From Pseudomonadota bacterium (GTDB lineage Bacteria; Chloroflexota; UBA6077; JAJPGT01), in assembly GCA_021325655.1 (NCBI GenBank), contig JAJPGT010000054.1, forward strand, positions 16,124-80,123: a DNA stretch of 64,000 bases, given 5' to 3'. Numbering within the stretch: position 1 is the stretch's first letter; every line of letters starts with the position of its first letter. The notes beneath the pieces are model-generated. The model saw only the letters and a program-made list of their open reading frames with translations, was not told the origin of the DNA and did no database searches. This document shows positions 22,676 through 57,772 of this stretch, in pieces. The position numbers were made by a program, and so were the translations under genes.

Positions 22676-24787
22676 CTACTTTGGCACCTGCGGCGCGGGC
22701 GCCTGGACCGCCGGGCCCGGGGTGGCAGGCAACGGGGCCGTGGGCGCGGCGCTCGCCGCCAGCACCTCGATCCGCCCGACCATGAAGGGATGCGGGGTGC
22801 AGTGGTAGGTGTAGACCCCCGGCGTGGTGAAGGTGAACGAGAAGCTCTGGCCGGTCTGCATCACCTTGGAGTCGAAGGTCGTCCCATCGTCAGAGGTGGC
22901 GCTGTGCGGGAAGGCGCCGTCCTGCTTCCAGGTGACGGTGGTGCCCACCGGGATCACCACGTTGGAGGGGTCGTACTTGAAGTTCACGATCTCGATGCTG
23001 TTCGTCTGCACTGGTGCGCCGATGATCGCCGCCTCTGGCTTGGTGGCTGGCGGCGGCGGCGCCGCGACCGGCCCGAGCGTGCCGGTGAGCGAGAACACCC
23101 AGAGCGTGTCGCCGCGCGGGTAATCGAGCTGGAAGTTGCCACCAGAGGCCACGGCGACGTACTCCTGCCCATCTACCTGGTACACCGAAGGCGCGGCGTT
23201 GGCGCCCGCGCCGGTCTGGAACTGCCAGAGCAGGTCGCCGGTCCTGGCGTCGTAGGCCTCGAAGTTGCCGTCGCCCTGCCCGGCGAACACCAGCCCGCCG
23301 GCGGTCGTGGTGGTGCCGCCGATCATCATGTACTTGCCTGGCTTCTGCCAGGCGATGCGGTTGGTATGAACATCGATCGCCGTGAGCGTACCAGAGGTCT
23401 CCTGGTCGGGCGGCGTGGTGAAGCTGCTACCCAGCTTCAGCTTGCCCTGCTCGATCTCCGAGGGGTTGTAGGTGAAGATCATCGGCTGGTTGATGCCATC
23501 CACGTAGACGTAGCCGGTGTCCGGGTTGTAGGAGATGGGCGACCACTCGTTGCCACCGTTGGCGCCCGGCAGGATCAGCACCGGCAGTTCCTCGAAGGGG
23601 GTGAAGATGGCGCCCTTCGGGTACGGCGATTGGAGGTTCCGGGCGTCCTGCGGAACGAAGGCGTCCCCTTGCGGGAACGGCTGCGTCTCGGCGGTCGCCT
23701 GGTGCGGATCCTGCGGCACCGGCTTCTCCACGATGGGCACCAGTGGCTGCCCGGTCACCCGGTCCAGCAGGTACACCCAGCCGGTCTTGCCGGCGTGCGC
23801 CAGCCCCTTGACCGGCTTGCCGTTGATGGTGGTGTCGAACAGCACCGCCGGGCTGGTAGCGTCGTAGTCCCAGATATCGTGGTGGACCGTCTGGTAGTGC
23901 CAGCGGTAGGCACCGGTGTGGACATCCAGCGCGACGATCGACTCGGTGTACAGGTTGTCGCCAGCGCGCACCGTCCCATCCAGGTCCGGGCCCGGGTTGC
24001 CAACAGTGAGGTACAGCAGCCCTAGGTCGGGGTCGATCGCTGGAGTCATCCACATCGAGCCGCCGCCGTGCTTGTAGATGTCGCCGGGCGGCCAGGTCTC
24101 GCTGCCAGGCTCTCCCGGGGCCGGGATGGTGTACCAGCGCCAGACCTGGGCCCCGGTATCGGCGTTGTACGCGGTCACGTAGCCGCGATTCTCATACTCC
24201 GCGCCGGAGATGCCGATGATGACCATCCCGTCGAAGTACTGCGGCGCCATCGTCTCGCTGTAACCGTCCGCGGTGGAGCCGACCTCGACATCCCACACCT
24301 TGGCGCCGGACTGCTGGTCGAGCGCGACGAGGTGGCCGTTGACCTCGCCGACGAACACCTTCCCGCTGCCCACCGCGACACCGCGGTTGACCAGGCCGCA
24401 GCAGACGGCGACCTTGTCGGTGTCGATGTTCGGATGGTACTCCCAGAGCACCTGGCCGTTCTTCGCGTCGAGCGCCCACACGTCGTCACGGCCCGAGGTG
24501 AGGTACATCACGCCGTTGATGACGACCGGGGTTGACTCAAAGGAGCTACTCTTGTCGCCGAATTTGGCGTGGAACGTCCAGGCGCCCTTGAGGTTCTTGA
24601 CGTTGCTCGTATTGATCTGGGTAAGCGTGGAGTAGCGCTGGTTGTAGTAGCTACCACCGTAGTTCGGCCAATCGGCGCCCGGCGGGGGTGGGGGCACCTG
24701 GCCCGGGCTCGCCGCGGCGGGAACGGCCAGTGCCAGCGCCGCGCACAGCGAGAGTACAACGATCCTGATCGCCATCCGAGGTTGCAT
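22676..24787 (-). CDS. PQQ-dependent (quinoprotein) alcohol dehydrogenase-type beta-propeller fused to a C-terminal amicyanin-like cupredoxin domain; secreted
   Basis: The protein starts with a signal peptide (MQPRMAIRIVVLSLCAALALAVPAAA). It carries quinoprotein motifs (WPNYGGSYYNQRYS, the vicinal CC in KVAVCCGLVNRGVAV, and W-rich propeller repeats). The last ~110 aa read VGTTVTWKQDGAFPHSAT...GVYTYHCTPHPFMVGRIEV, which contains the type-1 copper ligands H...C-x2-H-x2-M. GGAGG lies upstream of ATG 24787. Confidence 0.9.
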   Translation of the reverse strand: MQPRMAIRIVVLSLCAALALAVPAAASPGQVPPPPPGADWPNYGGSYYNQRYSTLTQINTSNVKNLKGAWTFHAKFGDKSSSFESTPVVINGVMYLTSGRDDVWALDAKNGQVLWEYHPNIDTDKVAVCCGLVNRGVAVGSGKVFVGEVNGHLVALDQQSGAKVWDVEVGSTADGYSETMAPQYFDGMVIIGISGAEYENRGYVTAYNADTGAQVWRWYTIPAPGEPGSETWPPGDIYKHGGGSMWMTPAIDPDLGLLYLTVGNPGPDLDGTVRAGDNLYTESIVALDVHTGAYRWHYQTVHHDIWDYDATSPAVLFDTTINGKPVKGLAHAGKTGWVYLLDRVTGQPLVPIVEKPVPQDPHQATAETQPFPQGDAFVPQDARNLQSPYPKGAIFTPFEELPVLILPGANGGNEWSPISYNPDTGYVYVDGINQPMIFTYNPSEIEQGKLKLGSSFTTPPDQETSGTLTAIDVHTNRIAWQKPGKYMMIGGTTTTAGGLVFAGQGDGNFEAYDARTGDLLWQFQTGAGANAAPSVYQVDGQEYVAVASGGNFQLDYPRGDTLWVFSLTGTLGPVAAPPPPATKPEAAIIGAPVQTNSIEIVNFKYDPSNVVIPVGTTVTWKQDGAFPHSATSDDGTTFDSKVMQTGQSFSFTFTTPGVYTYHCTPHPFMVGRIEVLAASAAPTAPLPATPGPAVQAPAPQVPK

Positions 24788-25088
24788 ACTCGCGCCTCCA
24801 CATCATGCGTCGCGTCCCTGCGGACACGAAATCAGGTAGGCCGAAACACTTTCCCCCCTTTCGCTCTCAGCCGCTCTATGAGCAGCAATGCACCTCCCGC
24901 GCTCCAGCATAGCAGTCTCAGCGGAAGACGGCTTATCCTGCCGCGGCGGTTCCACGCTGGTGCCGAGGAATCGGCGGTTCTGGGCCCCGCTCCCGTTCGG
25001 AACCGTTCATAATTGAGCGAGCAGATACTCTGGCGAGCAGAGCCACGAGCGGCTCTGCTCTGGTGCGAGACGCCAAGGAGTACGCCCG

Positions 25089-25583
25089 ATGACGACGGCC
25101 AGTCCAGCCGTTACCGTGTACACCACCTCGACTTGACCCTGGTGTGTCCGAGCGAAGGAGTTCCTTCGCCAGCACAACATCCCGTTCGTCGAGCGGAACA
25201 TCGAGCAGGACCGCGCTGCCCAGATGGAGGTCTATCGCATGACCGGGCAGCTCGGGGTGCCGGTTATTGCCGACGACCAGGAGGCGATCATCGGCTTCAA
25301 TGTCCCGCGGCTGCAGCAGCTTGCGGCGCGCCATTTCCGGCCGCGGCTGGGGCTGCTCGTTGCCCCGGCAGAGGAGGGCGTGCGTATTGGCGCGGTGCGG
25401 CCGGACACCGTGGCCGCCCGGGCCGGGCTCCAGCCGGGCGACATCGTGGTCGAGCTGTCGGGCGCGCCGGTGAAGACACCGGACGACCTGGAGCGCATTG
25501 CCAGCAAGATGCGGCCCGGCACGCCGACCAGTATCATGGTGCTCCGCGGCGGAGAACGTCTGACCTTGATCCTCCGTCCCTAG
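25089..25583 (+). CDS. glutaredoxin/NrdH-like domain fused to a PDZ domain; in-frame TGA (25134-25136) at the first Cys position of the CxxC motif (candidate selenocysteine, or else a pseudogene)
   Basis: AAGGAG (25075-25080) precedes ATG 25089. The frame reads MTTASPAVTVYTTST-TGA-PWCVRAKEFLRQHNIPFVERNIEQDRAAQMEVYRMTGQLGVPVIADDQEAIIGFN... and is continuous with track ORF 25224..25583, which carries PDZ-like GVRIGAVRPDTVAARAGLQPGDIVVELSG. Confidence 0.65.
25152..25169 (+). promoter_or_regulatory. SECIS-like hairpin GCGAAGG-AGUU-CCUUCGC, 15 nt 3' of the in-frame UGA
   Basis: A perfect 7-bp stem with a 4-nt loop that contains G and U. The loop starts 22 nt after the UGA. Assigning it as a SECIS is inference. 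Confidence 0.4.
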
Positions 25584-30918: not shown

Positions 30919-31173
30919 GTGCGCTGCTGGGTCTGCGGAGCGGCGGCTGAAGGGTCTTGTCGCTTCTGTGGCCGAGGCATTTGTAAAGCGCATGCCCGAA
31001 CGCGCGCCTTCCTGTTTGAGACCTGGGAAGACGAGGGGGCGCTGCGGGGGCTCGCAGTGGAGGATGCGCTCCACTGCGGCGTGTGCAAAGTGCGGCCGGA
31101 GCCGATGGACCTCGAATTCCTGCGCGGGCGGCAGATGCAGGACAAGGGCGGCAAAGCGCCGGACCACCCCTGA
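30919..31173 (+). CDS. small Cys-rich zinc-ribbon protein (DUF2180-like)
   Basis: 84 aa with a GTG start. MRCWVCGAAAEGSCRFCGRGICKAHA...HCGVCKV gives CxxC-x7-CxxC-x4-C-x2-H plus a distal CxxC. The gene ends 33 nt before the next gene on the same strand. Confidence 0.5.
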   Translation: MRCWVCGAAAEGSCRFCGRGICKAHARTRAFLFETWEDEGALRGLAVEDALHCGVCKVRPEPMDLEFLRGRQMQDKGGKAPDHP

Positions 31174-31206
31174 AGCCTGGCTGAGCGTGGACAAGGTGGG
31201 CCTCCG

Positions 31207-33342
31207 ATGATCGAAGCCGCCCGGTCGCCCTGGTGGGAGCAGCTTGCCCGGGCCATCTCGCCCATCGAGGAGCGGCCGCGGGTGGTCGATGGGATCGAGG
31301 CGGTCTGCCAGACCAGTCGTGATGGCCGAGCCTATATGGTGGTCCGCAGCCCGGTTGCGAACACGTACCTGAAGCTCGATCCGCGCGAGTTCGAGCTGCT
31401 GGCACTCATGGACGGCAGCCGCAGCGTCAAGGCGCTGGTGGTGGCCTATTTCCAGCGCCATGGCGTCCTGGCCTTGCCACGTATCGCCGGCTTGGTCGGG
31501 CTGCTGCGCGCGCACCGATTCCTGACCGAGCCGCCGCTGGACGCCCTCGCGGCGCTGGAGTGCCGGCTGCGCCGCTGGAGCGCCGGGGTGCTGTTCGCCC
31601 GGCTGGCGCGCGGGCTGGTGCAGACGGAGATCGAAGTGCGCGGCGTCGACCGGGTGCTGGACGGCTGGTATCGGGCCTGGGGCTGGCTTCTGTTCACCCG
31701 GTCGATCGCCCTGGCCGGTACCGTGCTAGGATTCCTCGGGCCGCTGCTGTTCCTGCTCGAGCTGAGCCGGGCCCGCTACCCGTTGTTCCGCACGGGCGGC
31801 TCGTACGTCGCGGGCCTCGTGCTGCTGCTGCTGCTGGAGCTGCTCGTGCTCACTGTGCACGAGCTTGGCCACGGCCTGGCAGTCAAGCACGCGGGGCGAA
31901 CCGTCCACCGGGCTGGGTTTCTGCTCTACTACGGCCTGCCGGCCGCCTTCGTGGACACGACCGACGTCTGGATGGCGCCGCGCCGGCTGCGGCTGATCAC
32001 CTCCTTTGCCGGCCCCTGGACGGGCCTGGTGATCGGCGGACTCGCCGCGCTCGGGGCGTGGGCGCTGCCCGCGGGCTCCCTGGGGGCGTTCCTGTTCGTC
32101 TGGTGCTTCGTCTCGCTTATCAACACGCTGGCCAACTTCAACCCGCTGCTCGAGCTCGATGGCTATTACCTCCTGGTGGACCTTATAGAGAAGCCGATGC
32201 TGCGGGCCCGAGCGCTGACGTTTGTGCGCGGGCCGCTGTGGACCCGGCTTCGGCAACGCCAGCGGCTCAGCGGTGAGGAGCAGTTCTTCGCCTGGTTCGG
32301 TCTCGCCACCCTCGTCTACTCTGGGCTCTCGCTGTTCCTCGCACTCAGCTTCTGGTCGCGCTGGCTGCTGCCGGCCCTGCGTGGGGCGTGGCAGAGCGAC
32401 CAGCCACTGGCGCGCCTCGTGGTGCTGCTGGTCGGCCTGGCCATCGCCACCCCACTGGCACTCGCCGCCTGGGCCGGCGTCAGGTCCTTGTCCGCGGCTG
32501 TCGCGCGACGGCTGATCCTGCTGAACGGGCGCGCCGCCGCCCGTCGCCACCGCGCGATGCTCGACGCCCTGCGCGCGGTGCCGCTCTGGGCAGGGCTTCC
32601 CGATGGGCAGGCGCTGGAGGTGGCCCGGGCGATGCGGGCCCAGGACGTCCCACCGGGGACGGAGGTGGTCCGCCAGGGCGAGCCGGGCGACCGCTTCTAC
32701 CTCATCGACTACGGTCGCTTCGAAGTGCTGGTGGATGGCCAGCCGGTCGCCCGGCTGGGCCGCGGCGACTACTTTGGGGAGCGTGCGCTGCTGAATCGAG
32801 CGCCGCGGGCAGCCACGGTGGTGGCGGTGGAGCCCAGCCGCGTGTTCTGGCTGGACCAGGCGCAGTTCCAGGCGCTGCTGGCGCACGACCTGGCAACCCG
32901 GGCCCGGCTCGAGGCCGCGGTCGCCTACCGCGCCGAGGTGGCGGCGATGCCGCTGTTCCGCGACCTCCGCCCGGTCGAGCTGGACCTGCTCCTGGCCCGC
33001 CTGATCCCCATCCGAGTCGAGGCCGGCGCCGCCATTATCCACCAGGGCGAGCCGGGCGACCGCTTCTACATCATCCGCTCGGGGTCGGTCCAGGTGGAGC
33101 GCGACGATCACCTGCTGGCGACGCTCGGACCGGGCGAGACGTTCGGCGAGATCGCGCTGCTGCACAACGTGCCCCGCACGGCAACGGTGCGTGCAGTGGA
33201 GCCGACGGAGCTGCTCGCGCTGGAAGCGACCGACTTCCACGATCTGCTGGCCAGCTACTTCGGCCGGGCGGAGGAGCTGGAGCGGCTGAGCCATCTCCGC
33301 CTCGCCACGCACCACCGGCTGGACCAGATCGTGGCGCGGTAG
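31207..33342 (+). CDS. M50 (site-2 protease) family membrane metalloprotease-like protein fused to two cyclic-nucleotide-binding domains
   Basis: HELGHGLAVKH lies within a TM helix (LLELLVLTVHELGH), and the second M50 motif NFNPLLELDGYY is present. There are several TM helices, followed by two CAP-type cNMP modules (FGERALLNRAPRAATVVA and FGEIALLHNVPRTATVRA). Confidence 0.85.
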   Translation: MIEAARSPWWEQLARAISPIEERPRVVDGIEAVCQTSRDGRAYMVVRSPVANTYLKLDPREFELLALMDGSRSVKALVVAYFQRHGVLALPRIAGLVGLLRAHRFLTEPPLDALAALECRLRRWSAGVLFARLARGLVQTEIEVRGVDRVLDGWYRAWGWLLFTRSIALAGTVLGFLGPLLFLLELSRARYPLFRTGGSYVAGLVLLLLLELLVLTVHELGHGLAVKHAGRTVHRAGFLLYYGLPAAFVDTTDVWMAPRRLRLITSFAGPWTGLVIGGLAALGAWALPAGSLGAFLFVWCFVSLINTLANFNPLLELDGYYLLVDLIEKPMLRARALTFVRGPLWTRLRQRQRLSGEEQFFAWFGLATLVYSGLSLFLALSFWSRWLLPALRGAWQSDQPLARLVVLLVGLAIATPLALAAWAGVRSLSAAVARRLILLNGRAAARRHRAMLDALRAVPLWAGLPDGQALEVARAMRAQDVPPGTEVVRQGEPGDRFYLIDYGRFEVLVDGQPVARLGRGDYFGERALLNRAPRAATVVAVEPSRVFWLDQAQFQALLAHDLATRARLEAAVAYRAEVAAMPLFRDLRPVELDLLLARLIPIRVEAGAAIIHQGEPGDRFYIIRSGSVQVERDDHLLATLGPGETFGEIALLHNVPRTATVRAVEPTELLALEATDFHDLLASYFGRAEELERLSHLRLATHHRLDQIVAR

Positions 33343-55900: not shown

Positions 55901-57772
55901 GAAGCCTCGCAGCTCCCGCCCGCCGAGGCGATCCCCGCCATCCTACGCGCCCGGCAGGTCATCGTCGCCGGCGACGACAAACAGCTCCCGCCAACCTCGT
56001 TCTTCTCGTCGGCGCTCTTCGCCGACGACGAAGCAGACGACGAGGCGGAGGATACTGCTCCGTTGGAGTCGCTTCTGCACGAGTGCCAGGCCGTGGCTCC
56101 GTTCTTCCAGCCGACCTCGCTGCGCTGGCACTACCGCTCCCGCGACGAGCGGCTGATCGCGTTCTCGAACCACACCTTCTACGAAGGGTCGCTCATTACA
56201 TTTCCCTCGCCCAGCAGCCCGCCGGATCGAGGGGTGCAGCTCCGCTACGTGAGCAACGGCGTGTGGGATCGTGGCAAGAGCCGCACGAACCGCGCCGAGG
56301 CGCGCGTGGTAGCCGATCTCGTAGTGCAGCACTTGGACGAGCACCCGGACCGGACAATCGGGGTAGCAACCCTCAACGTCAGCCAGAAGGAGGCCGTCGA
56401 GGACGCGCTGGAAGAGGTGCTGCTCGACCGCGCCGATCTGCGTGCCCGGCTCTATGACGAAAAAGAGGCCGAGCCGTTCTTTGTCAAGAGCCTGGAGAAT
56501 GTCCAGGGCGATGAGCGCGATACGATTATCATCAGCACTGGGTATGGTCCGGATCCAAGCGGAATCATCAGCCTCAACTTCGGACCGCTCAACCAGGACG
56601 GTGGTTGGCGGCGACTCAACGTGCTCGTCACCCGCGCCCGGTATCTGACCATCCTGGTCACCAGCCTCCGCAGCGCCGATCTGCGCGCCGTCTCGCCCGA
56701 TAACCGCGGTGCGACCGCCCTCCGACAGTTCATCGAGTACGTAGAGCGTGGAGACCGCCTCACGCCTGAAGCTGCGCGCCTTACCGGCGCGGAGACGAAC
56801 GACTTTGAAGACGCAATCGCCCAGGGCCTGCGCGCCCGCGGTCTGCAGGTGGACGAGCAGGTAGGCGCCTCCAACTTCCGCATCGACTTGGCGATCCGCG
56901 ACCCGCGTGATCCAGACCGGTACCTGCTCGGCGTCGAGTGCGATGGAGCCACCTACCACAGCTCCCGCACTGCGCGCGATCGGGACGTGCTGCGCGCCGA
57001 GATGCTCCGCAAGATGGGTTGGCGGCTGCATCGCATCTGGTCGGTCGACTGGTTCCGCAATCCAGAGCAGGAACTCGATGCTGCGGTGCGGGCTGTCCAA
57101 CGGGCGATGGCGCCTGCTGCTCCAGAGGCCGGCGTACCCGCGCCGCCAGTCTATAGCCCACCAGTATCCCCGCCACCTACCGTTTCTCGCCCGGCCGTCG
57201 CCCCGCCGACGGCTAGTACGTTCCCCGCGGGCGTTCCCTATCGCGAGGCCTCGCGCTTCCATCCCAACCGTGACCTTCTGCTAGCTGATTGGAACGAGCA
57301 GGCGCTGGCCGATGAGATTGCACGCGTGGTCGCCGAAGAGGGGCCCATCCATGTCGAGCTCGCACTACGGCGCGTGCGAGAGCTGAACGGCGTCGGGCGA
57401 GCGGGCAAGCATGTGCGGGCCAATTTCGAGCGAGCGCTCAAGGTAGCAGTGCGACGCAAAGGGCTGCGCCGGGACCAGTCTGGATTCCTCTGGGCGCGGA
57501 ACCAGACGCTCACCCGATTCCGATCCGCTAGCTCCGAAGATGAACCGCGCGCCATCGAGCACATCCCGGTAGAGGAGATCCGCCTGGCTGTGCTGCACGT
57601 CGTGGAGAGCCAGTTCGGGCTTCCGCGCGAGGACCTGGTGCGTCAAGCAGCTTCCGAACTAGGCTTCCAGCGAACGAGTACAGACATCGCTAAAGCGGTC
57701 GGCACAGTAGTAGATGAGCTCATCCGGAAGGGCGAGCTGCGCCGGAGTGGGTTCCAGATAAGGCTGCCATGA
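52937..57772 (+). CDS. 1611-aa Upf1-like SF1 helicase with a DUF4011-type N-terminus, a restriction-endonuclease-fold (DUF559/Vsr-like) domain and a DUF3320-type C-terminus
   Basis: N-terminal LVDLTGRNPLLGIN. Helicase motifs: LLIYGPPGTGKSQTI (I), VVFDEASQLPP (II), VIVAGDDKQLPP, WHYRSRDERLIAFSN, ENVQGDERDTIIIS and RRLNVLVTRAR. The REase-like block reads FRIDLAI...YLLGVECDGATYHSSRTARDRDVLRAEMLRKMGWRLHRIWSVDWF. The C-terminal block reads EGPIHVELALRRVRELNGVGRAG. Confidence 0.9.
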   Translation: MDTQLPSIFASMDTVDDIRSQINTRAPVGTSATTDRERIQGKLQVWRERLVDLTGRNPLLGINRSRTSKLRISAPEVGELFDSLVVHEMTLRLPLVRRRPAADKGALPLEAGEDGAAERNARDLEVSQWVVQEGDIRFDAEAPELRRRLRRIRDNARATVEERGVTTLHLTIGAVCWDDAQLGPSVAPLWLIPCELESDGPDEPLRLRASDEDPQLNPALAIYLRERHGKQLPSLPEEPAAGVVGELLQQAQCALGDDFQVSDESWLSTFSFETLTMYQDLDTLAEEAVGHDVIRAFCNVSVRQDPGASERLGDDLDAPELAPVLPIPVLPADSSQLEALGYARQGRHLLIYGPPGTGKSQTITNLIADSLGQGKTVLFVSAKKAALDVVHDRLSKLGFGRFCLEAHSTKAGKRRVIDELRRALDAAGQMNGADDGAALARHVELRARLNEAVRELHRRRDPLGRSVYEGLGQFARYQQLPALWASLPWPDPTTVDGDSFQKALDLLGDLQAEASTFAERETHPWRGCIVEDAGYATTQTLLDALQTVRVAATSALDASKSLAPFVGMLDQRSFADLEQGADAFRALVKATWLPPGWTTATVAELEAAAGKLGAAAEQVRSLADLRSAFAAQTDGADPVGAREVLAPALDRFAAWYKRVLPSYLFWKREVRERVRPKTEDYRALAELARLAGRIAEAEAALEAQRPALTPLLHDAAGPWPDVRSLDEAAAAFQHAATIRQGRARLGSNEPNGETVDVDELARAAAERVLAQLPSANANLVDALDRLRAAWGGAFVAKAAPLDVPLASLIARCSEVEAAPKRLTQWVTLRQALDRCEEAGLGPFIAALQPHGSGQAVDLFLRLFWLLWVDAHIAKTPVLTQFSGQKRGAVVQEFAALDEQLRKLAISAAIDGAARRAAQISQTSFANRSSQLGILQRELQKKRPRPLRKLFTAIPQVLQAIKPCMLMSPVSVSTYLAPGAIKFDTVVFDEASQLPPAEAIPAILRARQVIVAGDDKQLPPTSFFSSALFADDEADDEAEDTAPLESLLHECQAVAPFFQPTSLRWHYRSRDERLIAFSNHTFYEGSLITFPSPSSPPDRGVQLRYVSNGVWDRGKSRTNRAEARVVADLVVQHLDEHPDRTIGVATLNVSQKEAVEDALEEVLLDRADLRARLYDEKEAEPFFVKSLENVQGDERDTIIISTGYGPDPSGIISLNFGPLNQDGGWRRLNVLVTRARYLTILVTSLRSADLRAVSPDNRGATALRQFIEYVERGDRLTPEAARLTGAETNDFEDAIAQGLRARGLQVDEQVGASNFRIDLAIRDPRDPDRYLLGVECDGATYHSSRTARDRDVLRAEMLRKMGWRLHRIWSVDWFRNPEQELDAAVRAVQRAMAPAAPEAGVPAPPVYSPPVSPPPTVSRPAVAPPTASTFPAGVPYREASRFHPNRDLLLADWNEQALADEIARVVAEEGPIHVELALRRVRELNGVGRAGKHVRANFERALKVAVRRKGLRRDQSGFLWARNQTLTRFRSASSEDEPRAIEHIPVEEIRLAVLHVVESQFGLPREDLVRQAASELGFQRTSTDIAKAVGTVVDELIRKGELRRSGFQIRLP

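Follow-up and report, generated by a model that had tools for sequence, protein, structure and literature searches.

Glutaredoxins of the UxxC type (Sec-Grx, PF00462) are an experimentally verified family of bacterial selenoproteins, represented by the glutaredoxin (Grx) from Clostridium oremlandii (Kim et al. 2011, as cited in PMC13188914) and by WP_010943784.1 from Geobacter. The known members are stand-alone proteins of about 80–90 residues from anaerobes (Clostridia and Deltaproteobacteria), with a thioredoxin fold, a UGA-encoded selenocysteine (Sec) at the position of the N-terminal Cys of CxxC, a hairpin within the ORF, and Cys-containing homologs. Sec decoding has also been reported in Chloroflexi, together with a tRNA-Sec of an unusual 8/4 type. 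The closest precedent for a thiol or selenol oxidoreductase that bears a PDZ domain is Trx7/PDZ (NF041199), a predicted bacterial selenoprotein with a thioredoxin-fold redox domain, described by a profile of 390 positions. Among the short glutaredoxin-like proteins, the GlrX_YruB (TIGR02196) and NrdH (TIGR02194) families are single-domain and their NCBIfam descriptions carry no selenoprotein label; the Uxx-star families, judged by name, consist of small proteins of one domain that end in U-x-x-stop.

The gene analyzed here resides in a 64-kb stretch of DNA (henceforth the window) and its features are listed in Table 1. Its start is ATG 25089, with no earlier start codon since the last upstream stop in this frame, and the frame opened there reads MTTASPAVTVYTTST-TGA-PWCVRAKEF..., with TGA 25134-25136 as codon 16. 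Beyond this TGA the frame remains open up to TAG 25581-25583 and includes the mechanically called ORF 25224..25583. The positions of AAGGAG, ATG, the in-frame TGA, the hairpin and the stop-free frame running into that ORF, as given in the original prediction, all proved correct when the sequence was read again. The TGA at 25134 is the same in four independent assemblies, hence it is not a sequencing error. TGA 25134-25136 is very probably a Sec codon in a glutaredoxin-PDZ fusion, and we hold with high confidence that 25089-25583 on the plus strand is one gene for a 164-residue Grx-PDZ selenoprotein, in which a hairpin would direct the insertion of Sec at UGA.

Table 1. Coordinates of the Grx-PDZ gene and its features in the window
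Feature	Position	Strand	Basis or remark
Shine-Dalgarno-like AAGGAG	25075..25080	+	8 nt 5' of the start codon; read from sequence
Complete CDS of the Grx-PDZ fusion, 164 residues (predicted Sec at position 16) and TAG stop	25089..25583	+	translation, Pfam, full-length Cys orthologs
Glutaredoxin / NrdH-YruB-like thioredoxin-fold domain (aa 8-78)	25110..25322	+	PF00462, TIGR02196, AF2, PDB 7c10
Thr codon ACT directly 5' of UGA	25131..25133	+	synonymous site conserved in Sec forms
In-frame TGA (candidate Sec codon, U16) that opens the redox motif U-P-W-C at 25134-25145	25134..25136	+	Sec/Cys alternation in orthologs
SECIS-like hairpin, within codons A-K-E-F-L-R	25152..25169	+	folding, bSECIS criteria, synonymous constraint
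Hairpin, 5' arm GCGAAGG	25152-25158	+	perfect 7-bp stem with the 3' arm
Hairpin, loop AGUU	25159-25162	+	
Hairpin, 3' arm CCUUCGC	25163-25169	+	perfect 7-bp stem with the 5' arm
Database gene call P0004, 114-aa 'PDZ-only' remnant	25239..25583	+	artefact of stopping at TGA
HtrA-type PDZ domain (aa 85-160)	25341..25568	+	PF13180, alignment A2, Foldseek

Pfam searches with U replaced by C bore out the glutaredoxin N-terminus and the PDZ C-terminus that had been proposed from the sequence: both Glutaredoxin (PF00462, aa 8–62, E = 1.6e-17, 63.8 bits against a gathering cutoff of 22.9) and PDZ_2 (PF13180, aa 85–160, E = 6.5e-13, 49.2 bits against a cutoff of 27) scored above their thresholds, the latter with a conserved carboxylate-binding loop. 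The corresponding loop-like motif P-x-L-G-L-x-V (aa 85–91) exhibits invariant P85, L87, G88, L89 and V91 in an alignment of 11 closer sequences (A2). The structure was modelled for a natural Cys ortholog (P0001), 73% identical to the window protein. The AF2 model (pLDDT 91.5) comprises a Grx fold, with the order β1-α1-β2-α2-β3-β4-α3, and a PDZ domain; strand E8-12 is followed by helix H17-28, and CPWC occupies residues 16–19. PDB 7c10 ('Glutaredoxin') was matched with E = 3e-16. The top Foldseek matches of the PDZ part are the PDZ domains of DegS, DegQ, HtrA and HtrA3, and by structure as well as by sequence aa 85–160 match the HtrA/DegS/DegQ type best, with the Φ-G-Φ loop (L87-G88-L89) conserved; the window protein differs from these proteins in having no protease domain.

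The best NCBIfam match of the N-terminal domain is GlrX_YruB (aa 8–78), with 77.5 bits against a cutoff of 88.55, so that by the NCBI criterion the window protein is not a member of that family. It shares with GlrX_YruB and NrdH a short Grx-like fold with G-F after β4 and without GG-x-DD, the classical glutathione-site motif of glutaredoxins. In the NCBIfam comparison the sequence resembles the NrdH/YruB type more than a classical glutaredoxin. The match to PDB 4tr0 ('Glutaredoxin 3'), which we take to be the C. oremlandii protein, is only remote (E = 4e-5). In contrast to the known Sec-Grx proteins, the window protein continues into a PDZ domain at its C-terminus, its gene belongs to soil Chloroflexota, and its active-site dipeptide P-W sets it further apart. 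The Uxx-star profiles remained below threshold (NF041212, 56.7 bits against a cutoff of 66; NF041114, NF041211 and NF047338 lower), and unlike what their names imply, the window protein has an N-terminal UxxC followed by PDZ. Trx7/PDZ is an analogue and not a homologous family: its redox domain is Thioredoxin_7 with the Sec in C-terminal position (CxxU), while ours is Glutaredoxin with UxxC, and NF041199 matched only the PDZ region (aa 94–160) with 31.3 bits against a cutoff of 300. No entry for a PDZ-fused Sec-glutaredoxin was found in NCBIfam or in two reviews, which agrees with the remark in the original prediction that such an architecture was not known to it as a selenoprotein; the novelty is nevertheless smaller than that statement implies, Sec-Grx and Trx7/PDZ both being catalogued already.

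Orthologous loci were collected from Chloroflexota MAGs and soil metagenomes by a scan seeded with the alignment A2, a 24-sequence alignment (A1) being too diverse. Whether orthologs would carry Cys or TGA at codon 16 had been posed as a check, and both occur: TGA is found in 64 of 73 loci and TGC or TGT in the remaining 9 (the TGA loci include 9 contigs that belong to about 8 MAGs of Chloroflexota; binned MAGs with TGA are DATGER01, VBGG01, JAFAOS01, JAFAZN01, DASXRR01 and JBPCIO01), whereas Trp or Arg codons never appear. Alternation of Sec and Cys is the criterion of the Cys/Sec-pair method for selenoprotein prediction, and the UGA column here indeed corresponds to Cys in homologous proteins, with about 50 full-length database homologs showing T-C-P-W-C where the window has TGA. 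The full-length Cys orthologs are 164–181 aa long. The peptide (I/V)TVY(T/S)TPT upstream of TGA is conserved in frame across orthologs, even though the 56 unique Sec-type genes are diverse (median identity 76%, minimum 49%). The codon before UGA is ACT in 53/56 unique Sec-type genes, compared with 2/8 of the Cys-type genes, which have mostly ACC. Genes of the Sec-Grx-PDZ family occur commonly among soil Chloroflexota, and some of those with TGA come from fire-warmed Centralia surface soil.

The stem of the hairpin begins 15 nt and its loop 22 nt after TGA; the predicted MFE is -10.4 kcal/mol, and positions 2 and 3 of the 4-nt loop are G and U. These values agree with all four published bSECIS constraints (PMC13188914, Fig. 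2), namely an apical loop of 3–9 nt on an upper stem of 4–16 bp, a G among the first two bases of the loop and usually then G or U, a UGA-loop distance of 16–37 nt, and an MFE <= -7.5 kcal/mol. The E. coli fdhF element, as an example of the bSECISearch consensus, is likewise a stem-loop within the CDS 3' of UGA with a G-then-U loop, but its sequence is unrelated to that of the window hairpin, whose main form lacks the bulged U. A search of Rfam, which may not contain a general bacterial SECIS model, returned zero matches at gathering or E-value thresholds. Taken alone, the 45-nt stretch from the window folds only modestly better than its shuffled versions (z = -2.14; 8/200 shuffles fold as well), thus a hairpin in a single sequence is weak evidence by itself. 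Its conservation among the aligned orthologs, on the other hand, places it far beyond chance. In the Sec-type genes, synonymous departures affect 5/323 (1.5%) of the six hairpin codons and 378/1088 (34.7%) of the flanking ones (p = 4e-43), a constraint that shared ancestry inflates somewhat but that is controlled internally by the flanks, taken from the very same genes. Codon choice at +6 to +11 is nearly fixed (GCG 55/56, AAG 47/47, GAG 54/54, TTC 54/54, CTT 54/56 and CGC 54/56). In the Cys-type genes the corresponding rates (22% in hairpin codons and 37% in flanks) do not differ significantly, the Leu codon CTT is retained in only 3/8 (p = 1.4e-4 for the comparison with the Sec type), and the perfect 7-bp stem is present in 2/8 sequences as opposed to 44/54 of the Sec type (p = 0.003). 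Judged from these codon counts, the hairpin is under purifying selection at the RNA level in TGA-bearing genes, with a weaker constraint in Cys-bearing ones. As to the covariation envisaged in the original prediction, the hairpin is conserved at synonymous sites, and its main form, being invariant, shows no compensatory changes. Two Cys-type genes, L006 and L036, keep an intact hairpin, which weakens a strict rule that the hairpin occurs only with TGA; we read them as recent Sec-to-Cys conversions. The hairpin 25152-25169 is a putative bacterial SECIS that would be bound by SelB. The Sec/Cys alternation, the constraint on the hairpin and its bSECIS geometry together support the proposal of a UxxC selenoprotein.

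Gene callers routinely end the genes of the Grx-PDZ family at TGA. P0004, which is 100% identical across 70% of the query, is such a call, and the same 114-aa PDZ-only version is repeated in all four assemblies (L083-L086). In homologs, the calls start at differing points past the motif (VRAKEF, MEFLRK, VPFEVRD, MVRRT...), and with remnants starting at so many internal codons, there is no conserved alternative start. Some of the shortened calls bear the JGI names 'S1-C subfamily serine protease' or 'serine protease Do' and others are nameless; the protease names were carried over on the strength of nothing but the PDZ domain.

A rhodanese-CBS fusion on the same contig (L089:3007-3726, minus strand) contains an in-frame TGA within a complete rhodanese domain. 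The TGA column is Cys in 52 homologs, 51 shortened gene calls start two residues after it, and orthologs have TGA in their DNA, with a conserved hairpin of 8 bp and a GUG loop 20 nt downstream. At the level of nucleotide sequence, this gene shows the same signature of Cys/TGA alternation and G-U-loop hairpin as the Grx-PDZ gene. Its putative Sec motif is CxxxxU. A motif-based scan of the window for further read-through TGAs was swamped by false positives, the sequence being 70% GC, and a stricter scan based on the gene map and GC3 revealed, besides 25134, only ordinary adjacent in-frame genes. Reassignment of TGA throughout the genome was considered and rejected: TGA is the normal stop of many ordinary high-GC3 genes within the window, hence the code is not reassigned.

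Genes for the Sec machinery were sought with E. coli proteins (tblastn). Neither the 64-kb window nor ~88 kb of the source contig (JBAIGN010000014.1, 46.4-134.1 kb, part of the unbinned metagenome assembly GCA_037024535.1) yielded selA, selB or selD; ARAGORN did not find tRNA-Sec in the same sequences, though the unusual 8/4 form of Chloroflexi may escape it. The 82 related loci likewise yielded neither the three sel genes nor tRNA-Sec by these methods. The presence of the rhodanese-CBS gene, likewise of Sec type, on the contig speaks indirectly for such machinery in the genome. Could the UGA be read as something other than Sec, either through near-cognate suppression that inserts Trp, Cys or Arg and is stimulated by the hairpin, or as Cys via the Sec machinery? 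Downstream stem-loops are generally able to stimulate stop-codon read-through, and this ability, like the sel genes not being seen in the window or the ~88 kb of contig, would suit such a reading. We nevertheless regard it as very unlikely, in view of the restriction of the alternation to Cys codons at the catalytic nucleophile of CxxC, the SelB-type geometry with G then U in the apical loop and the 22-nt spacing, and the repetition of the same pattern in the rhodanese-CBS gene; moreover, Trp or Arg at residue 16 would inactivate the enzyme. The residue inserted at UGA is inferred to be Sec from this sequence pattern.

Or is the chief role of the UGA that of a terminator or a regulatory pause, for example in a selenium-sensing attenuator, with a re-initiated PDZ protein as the functional product and Sec insertion as a minor event? 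In E. coli, recoding of UGA as Sec does compete with termination mediated by RF2 (one study, PMC4513850, measured a recoding efficiency of 30–40% in vivo), and in-frame ATGs are available at 25224 and 25239. These internal start positions are, however, not conserved in orthologs, the Cys-form orthologs make the whole fusion constitutively, and the Grx residues between UGA and the ATGs (R21, A22, K23, F25, L26, E35, D41, T52, Q54 and G56-D62) are strongly conserved as protein in A2, which would serve no purpose in an untranslated stretch. There is little probability in this scenario, as in that of non-Sec read-through. The suggestion that a TGC/TGT-to-TGA nonsense mutation has killed the glutaredoxin, leaving only a PDZ remnant made from 25224 or 25239, accords with the present annotation here and in all four assemblies and with the Sec machinery not being found in the window and ~88 kb of contig, but can be rejected as extremely improbable, given that the same TGA recurs in 64/73 loci down to 49% identity, that the 15 upstream codons and the rest of the Grx domain are conserved as protein, that a dead gene is not expected to have its hairpin under synonymous-site purifying selection, and that the starts of the remnant calls are scattered and none is conserved.

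According to the selenoprotein interpretation, UGA 25134-25136 would be recoded as Sec under the direction of the hairpin, bound by SelB carrying Sec-tRNA(Sec). The predicted product is a small cytoplasmic glutaredoxin/NrdH-like oxidoreductase, in which Sec would attack from U-P-W-C and Cys19 would resolve. The PDZ domain may dock a C-terminal or extended peptide of a client, whose disulfide or sulfenate could then be reduced by the Sec-Cys site, and regeneration of the enzyme might, as for NrdH-type proteins, depend on thioredoxin reductase or on some other reductant that is not glutathione. The analysis of genomic neighborhood revealed hemB-hemL directly upstream of the gene in 28/50 loci, a tight linkage that is absent from this window and perhaps points to tetrapyrrole synthesis as the pathway of a client. 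The neighbors in the window (PQQ dehydrogenase-cupredoxin, MFS transporter, helicase, OsmC and MOSC) were considered as partners and rejected, as they are not conserved beside orthologs.

The recoding seems to follow the usual course of selenoprotein synthesis in bacteria, and with a textbook mechanism the conceptual surprise is limited. A more far-reaching view, which we put forward as doubtful, is that Sec-Grx-PDZ constitutes an uncatalogued selenoprotein family of aerobic soil Chloroflexota, with PDZ delivering a client (often tetrapyrrole-linked) to the selenol-thiol site, and that together with rhodanese-CBS it points to a selenoproteome of oxic soil bacteria that is sizeable and mis-annotated in a systematic way. 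The selenoproteome would gain a glutaredoxin of the UxxC type that brings its own peptide-docking domain, and with it a tractable way to study the contribution of Sec to a client-targeted oxidoreductase. Because Sec and Cys forms that are close relatives occur both with the hairpin and lacking it, they provide a sharp natural experiment on the evolution of SECIS. With the family mis-annotated almost everywhere, a curated model would fix probably many records and would also flag soil Chloroflexota as selenocysteine users.

The gene at 25089–25583 encodes a glutaredoxin-PDZ fusion interrupted by an in-frame TGA, and the comparisons described here make it highly probable that it is a genuine selenocysteine (Sec)-encoding gene. 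What doubt remains comes from the Sec machinery, no gene of which was found in the window, the fetched loci or the part of the contig covered below. All coordinates of the original prediction (the AAGGAG, the ATG, the TGA, the hairpin and the open frame) were confirmed in the sequence, and the translated frame around the TGA reads MTTASPAVTVYTTST-TGA-PWCVRAKEFLRQ... When C stands in for U, the 164-residue product has two Pfam domain matches: Glutaredoxin (PF00462, aa 8–62, E = 1.6e-17) and PDZ_2 (PF13180, aa 85–160, E = 6.5e-13). The closest sequence match to the glutaredoxin half in the PDB is 7c10 ('Glutaredoxin', E = 3e-16), while 4tr0 ('Glutaredoxin 3', which we take to be the C. oremlandii glutaredoxin) is a distant relative by sequence (E = 4e-5). 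For the PDZ half the matches are PDZ domains of DegS, DegQ, HtrA and HtrA3, and its loop P85-x-L87-G88-L89-x-V91 is invariant in the ortholog alignment. The AF2 model of a natural Cys-containing ortholog (P0001, 73% identical) is confident (mean pLDDT 91.5) and exhibits the order beta1-alpha1-beta2-alpha2-beta3-beta4-alpha3, in which helix alpha1 opens with the CPWC motif, and then a PDZ-like beta-sandwich; the pTM is 0.65, so how the two domains are oriented to each other is uncertain. No NCBIfam model reached its cutoff for this protein (GlrX_YruB: 77.5 bits, cutoff 88.55; Uxx_star: 56.7, cutoff 66; Trx7/PDZ selenoprotein: 31, PDZ part only, cutoff 300).

Features of the glutaredoxin-PDZ gene (window coordinates) and of a second TGA-containing gene on the same contig
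Feature	Position	Strand	Basis
Shine-Dalgarno-like AAGGAG	25075–25080	+	read from sequence
Start codon ATG	25089	+	first start after the preceding in-frame stop
In-frame TGA, codon 16	25134–25136	+	read from sequence
Hairpin GCGAAGG-AGUU-CCUUCGC	25152–25169	+	read from sequence
Stop TAG	25581–25583	+	frame open up to here, through mechanical ORF 25224..25583
Rhodanese-CBS fusion with in-frame TGA	L089:3007–3726; JBAIGN010000014.1 about 56427–57146	-	gene calls, read-through

Protein searches returned two classes of homologs: full-length proteins (164–181 aa) reading T-C-P-W-C, and many truncated calls with varied starts just past the motif (V/MRAKEF, MEFLRK, VPFEVRD, MVRRT, MGVPVI); the gene call at the window locus itself (P0004) is a 114-aa PDZ-only protein. 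The DNA of relatives comprised 11 loci from a collection with a single genome for each species, whose titles name Chloroflexota, Chloroflexi or Chloroflexia MAGs and, in one case, an 'uncultured bacterium' bin, and 71 loci from metagenomes. As to whether orthologs carry Cys or TGA at the codon in question, both occur: among the 73 loci with a locatable motif the first-Cys codon is TGA in 64 and TGC or TGT in nine (8 and 1, respectively). The peptide upstream of the TGA, (I/V)TVY(T/S)TPT, is kept in frame among orthologs, and over the glutaredoxin part the TGA-bearing genes are at least 49% identical, with 76% as the median. This distribution excludes a private nonsense mutation of TGC/TGT to TGA, since the TGA recurs in most of the orthologous loci behind a conserved upstream peptide. 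Genome-wide reassignment of TGA is likewise excluded, because TGA ends ordinary high-GC3 genes of the window, e.g. those of a 941-aa PEP carboxylase and a 446-aa glutamine synthetase. A sequencing error is excluded by four independent assemblies, in which the TGA and the whole gene are identical. One TGA-type ortholog (L045:543, Ga0099827_10154917) reads U-L-W-C, with Leu for the otherwise conserved Pro and an intact hairpin.

The hairpin 3' of the TGA agrees with all four explicit constraints that the review PMC13188914 sets for bacterial SECIS elements: the apical loop AGUU has 4 nt (3–9 allowed), with a G in second place and a U after it (expected is G among the first two positions, usually then G or U), the upper stem has 7 bp (4–16), the distance from UGA to loop is 22 nt (16–37), and the MFE is -10.4 kcal/mol (no higher than -7.5). 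Taken as a single sequence it is suggestive at most: the folding of the 45 nt that follow the UGA is only modestly better than that of shuffles (z = -2.14), 8 out of 200 of which do equally well. The comparison of synonymous sites is more telling. The hairpin occupies codons +6 to +11 (A-K-E-F-L-R), and in the 56 unique TGA-type sequences these are nearly fixed (GCG 55/56, AAG 47/47, GAG 54/54, TTC 54/54, CTT 54/56, CGC 54/56), while the flanking degenerate codons of the same sequences all vary freely, except for the Thr codon that directly precedes the TGA. Synonymous departures amount to 5/323 (1.5%) in hairpin codons against 378/1088 (34.7%) in flanks (p = 4e-43, which overstates the independence of related sequences, the flanking codons of the same genes being the internal control); in the 8 unique Cys-type sequences the corresponding figures are 9/41 (22%) and 55/148 (37%; p = 0.09). 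The Leu codon CTT is found in 54/56 TGA-type versus 3/8 Cys-type sequences (p = 1.4e-4), and the perfect 7-bp stem in 44/54 versus 2/8 (p = 0.003). Hairpin conservation shows as synonymous-site constraint, strong in TGA-type and weaker in Cys-type genes; classical compensatory covariation was not found, because the main stem never changes. In a subclade of TGA-type genes reading A-M-E-F-L-R the stem contains one U-U mismatch, always at the same position, and in three others (L010, L038, L077) the structure is re-modelled and shows either a longer lower stem or, instead, a CCUCC-GGUC-GGAGG hairpin. An intact hairpin is retained in two Cys-type genes, L006 and L036, which resembles the 'remnant SECIS-like structures' that PMC1794560 (Fig. 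4) reports for recent conversions of Sec to Cys. The Thr codon preceding the UGA (25131–25133) is ACT in 53/56 TGA-type and mostly ACC in Cys-type sequences, which may reflect an effect of codon context where recoding takes place, either favoring recoding or disfavoring termination. Together, the TGA/Cys alternation in 73 loci and the synonymous constraint on the hairpin support the reading as a UxxC selenoprotein.

The contig carries a candidate second selenoprotein, encoded about 4 kb ahead of window position 1. Two adjacent calls ('Rhodanese', 67 aa; 'CBS', 170 aa) form one frame split by a TGA (...VVVYCHDTQ-TGA-DMSTRAAW...), and read-through yields a complete rhodanese domain (PF00581, aa 10–97) spanning the TGA, followed by CBS domains. 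The active-site loop, YCHDTQ-U-DMS, is of the form CxxxxU, which is absent among the five rhodanese selenoprotein forms in PMC13188914. The TGA column holds Cys in 52 homologs and 'W' in 13, and the 51 truncated calls all have their start two residues further on. The 'W' arises in translation and is not a real Trp, as the DNA behind one such protein (P0135) has TGA. All orthologs whose DNA was checked, among them P0222 (NCBI name under Candidatus Dormibacteraeota), carry the TGA and a conserved 8-bp hairpin (-13.1 kcal/mol) with a GUG loop 20 nt downstream. Beside the TGA-bearing rhodanese-CBS gene of another organism (JGI Ga0376077_0001091), an in-frame TGA divides an AhpC/TSA peroxiredoxin into two calls (L095:1379–1710, +; ...ADTPG-TGA-TVEG...); the protein looks like a Sec-peroxiredoxin. 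A Candidatus Binatia MAG (JBBDNJ010000121.1) has a stand-alone glutaredoxin-like ORF with TGA at the first Cys (L011:about 1391–1605, +; VMVYSQPG-TGA-LFCGRAKEFL), whose frame breaks some 48 residues further on, perhaps by a frameshift or simply where homology ends.

Because two unrelated genes on one contig share the Cys/TGA and SECIS signature, Sec decoding in this genome is very likely. tblastn searches with E. coli SelA, SelB and SelD (NC_000913.3) gave no match in the window or any fetched relative locus, and no tRNA was found in the 64-kb window. Positions 46.4–134.1 kb of the 340-kb contig JBAIGN010000014.1, which carries the same sequence, were covered by way of pre-computed gene calls and contained no sel genes and no tRNA-Sec, although ARAGORN might miss an 8/4 tRNA-Sec. 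The corresponding assembly (GCA_037024535.1) is an unbinned community assembly from fire-affected Centralia soil (PMC11237453); selenoproteins and unusual 8/4 tRNA-Sec do occur in Chloroflexi (PMC1794560, PMC5389517).

A recurrent linkage to hemL-like genes hints at a function without being evidence for one. In 28 of the 50 loci with enough upstream sequence (e.g. L002:640–2990, L001, L008, L009, L010) a same-strand gene for a hemL-like class-III aminotransferase ends 54–156 nt ahead of the Sec codon, preceded in several by hemB (ALAD), and MarR and HlyD-type genes recur downstream. These associations are absent in the window, the hemL linkage being clade-specific, and the window neighbors (a divergent PQQ-dehydrogenase-cupredoxin gene, MFS transporter, helicase, OsmC, MOSC) are not conserved beside the fetched orthologs. 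The divergent neighbor (22676–24787, minus strand) encodes a 703-aa protein with a PQQ-dependent dehydrogenase beta-propeller and a C-terminal cupredoxin/copper-binding domain. Further downstream (30919–33342, +) an 84-aa ORF (30919–31173) is in frame with a 711-aa cNMP-binding/M50-like gene (31207–33342) across a TGA at 31171, which was judged a chance adjacency, with no Cys-like context. The region 15239–35583 is 99.98–99.99% identical, gap-free, to JGI Ga0070739_10000797 and NCBI JBAIGS010000644.1, and shows indel offsets against JBAIGN010000014.1 and JBHOQT010000072.1; the same population recurs across years in many Centralia soil assemblies.

The data establish one gene with TGA/Cys alternation at the CxxC nucleophile, a selected SECIS-like element and a two-domain fold. 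By analogy with established glutaredoxin/thioredoxin chemistry, Sec16 would attack a substrate disulfide or sulfenate, Cys19 would resolve the selenenyl-sulfide, and a reductase would recycle the enzyme. Since the glutaredoxin domain resembles NrdH/YruB proteins rather than classical glutathione-binding glutaredoxins, thioredoxin reductase or another non-glutathione donor would be the favored reductant. The PDZ domain would most plausibly dock client proteins by their C-terminal peptide or an extended one, conferring substrate selectivity.

Catalogued bacterial selenoproteins include the glutaredoxin family (PF00462, UxxC), which has been verified by experiment, and, as a prediction, a Trx7/PDZ CxxU family (PMC13188914, PMC9312934); the recoding mechanism and chemistry are therefore of a known kind. 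Neither these two reviews nor NCBIfam contains a glutaredoxin-PDZ selenoprotein, in line with the earlier remark, which knew of no description of this architecture as one, and within the paper library searched none combines glutaredoxin, PDZ domain and Chloroflexi. Truncated remnants bear names such as 'S1-C subfamily serine protease', 'serine protease Do', 'Mg/Co/Ni transporter MgtE' or 'predicted transcriptional regulator', annotation artefacts based on the PDZ or CBS domain alone, and some JGI calls (P0135 / L094:441–1124) render the Sec-TGA as W, probably via a code-4 model. What is new is the combination of domains, the setting in soil Chloroflexota, both phyletic and ecological, and how pervasive the mis-annotation is: a well-supported new selenoprotein subfamily with an unusual fusion, even if the mechanism itself is unsurprising.
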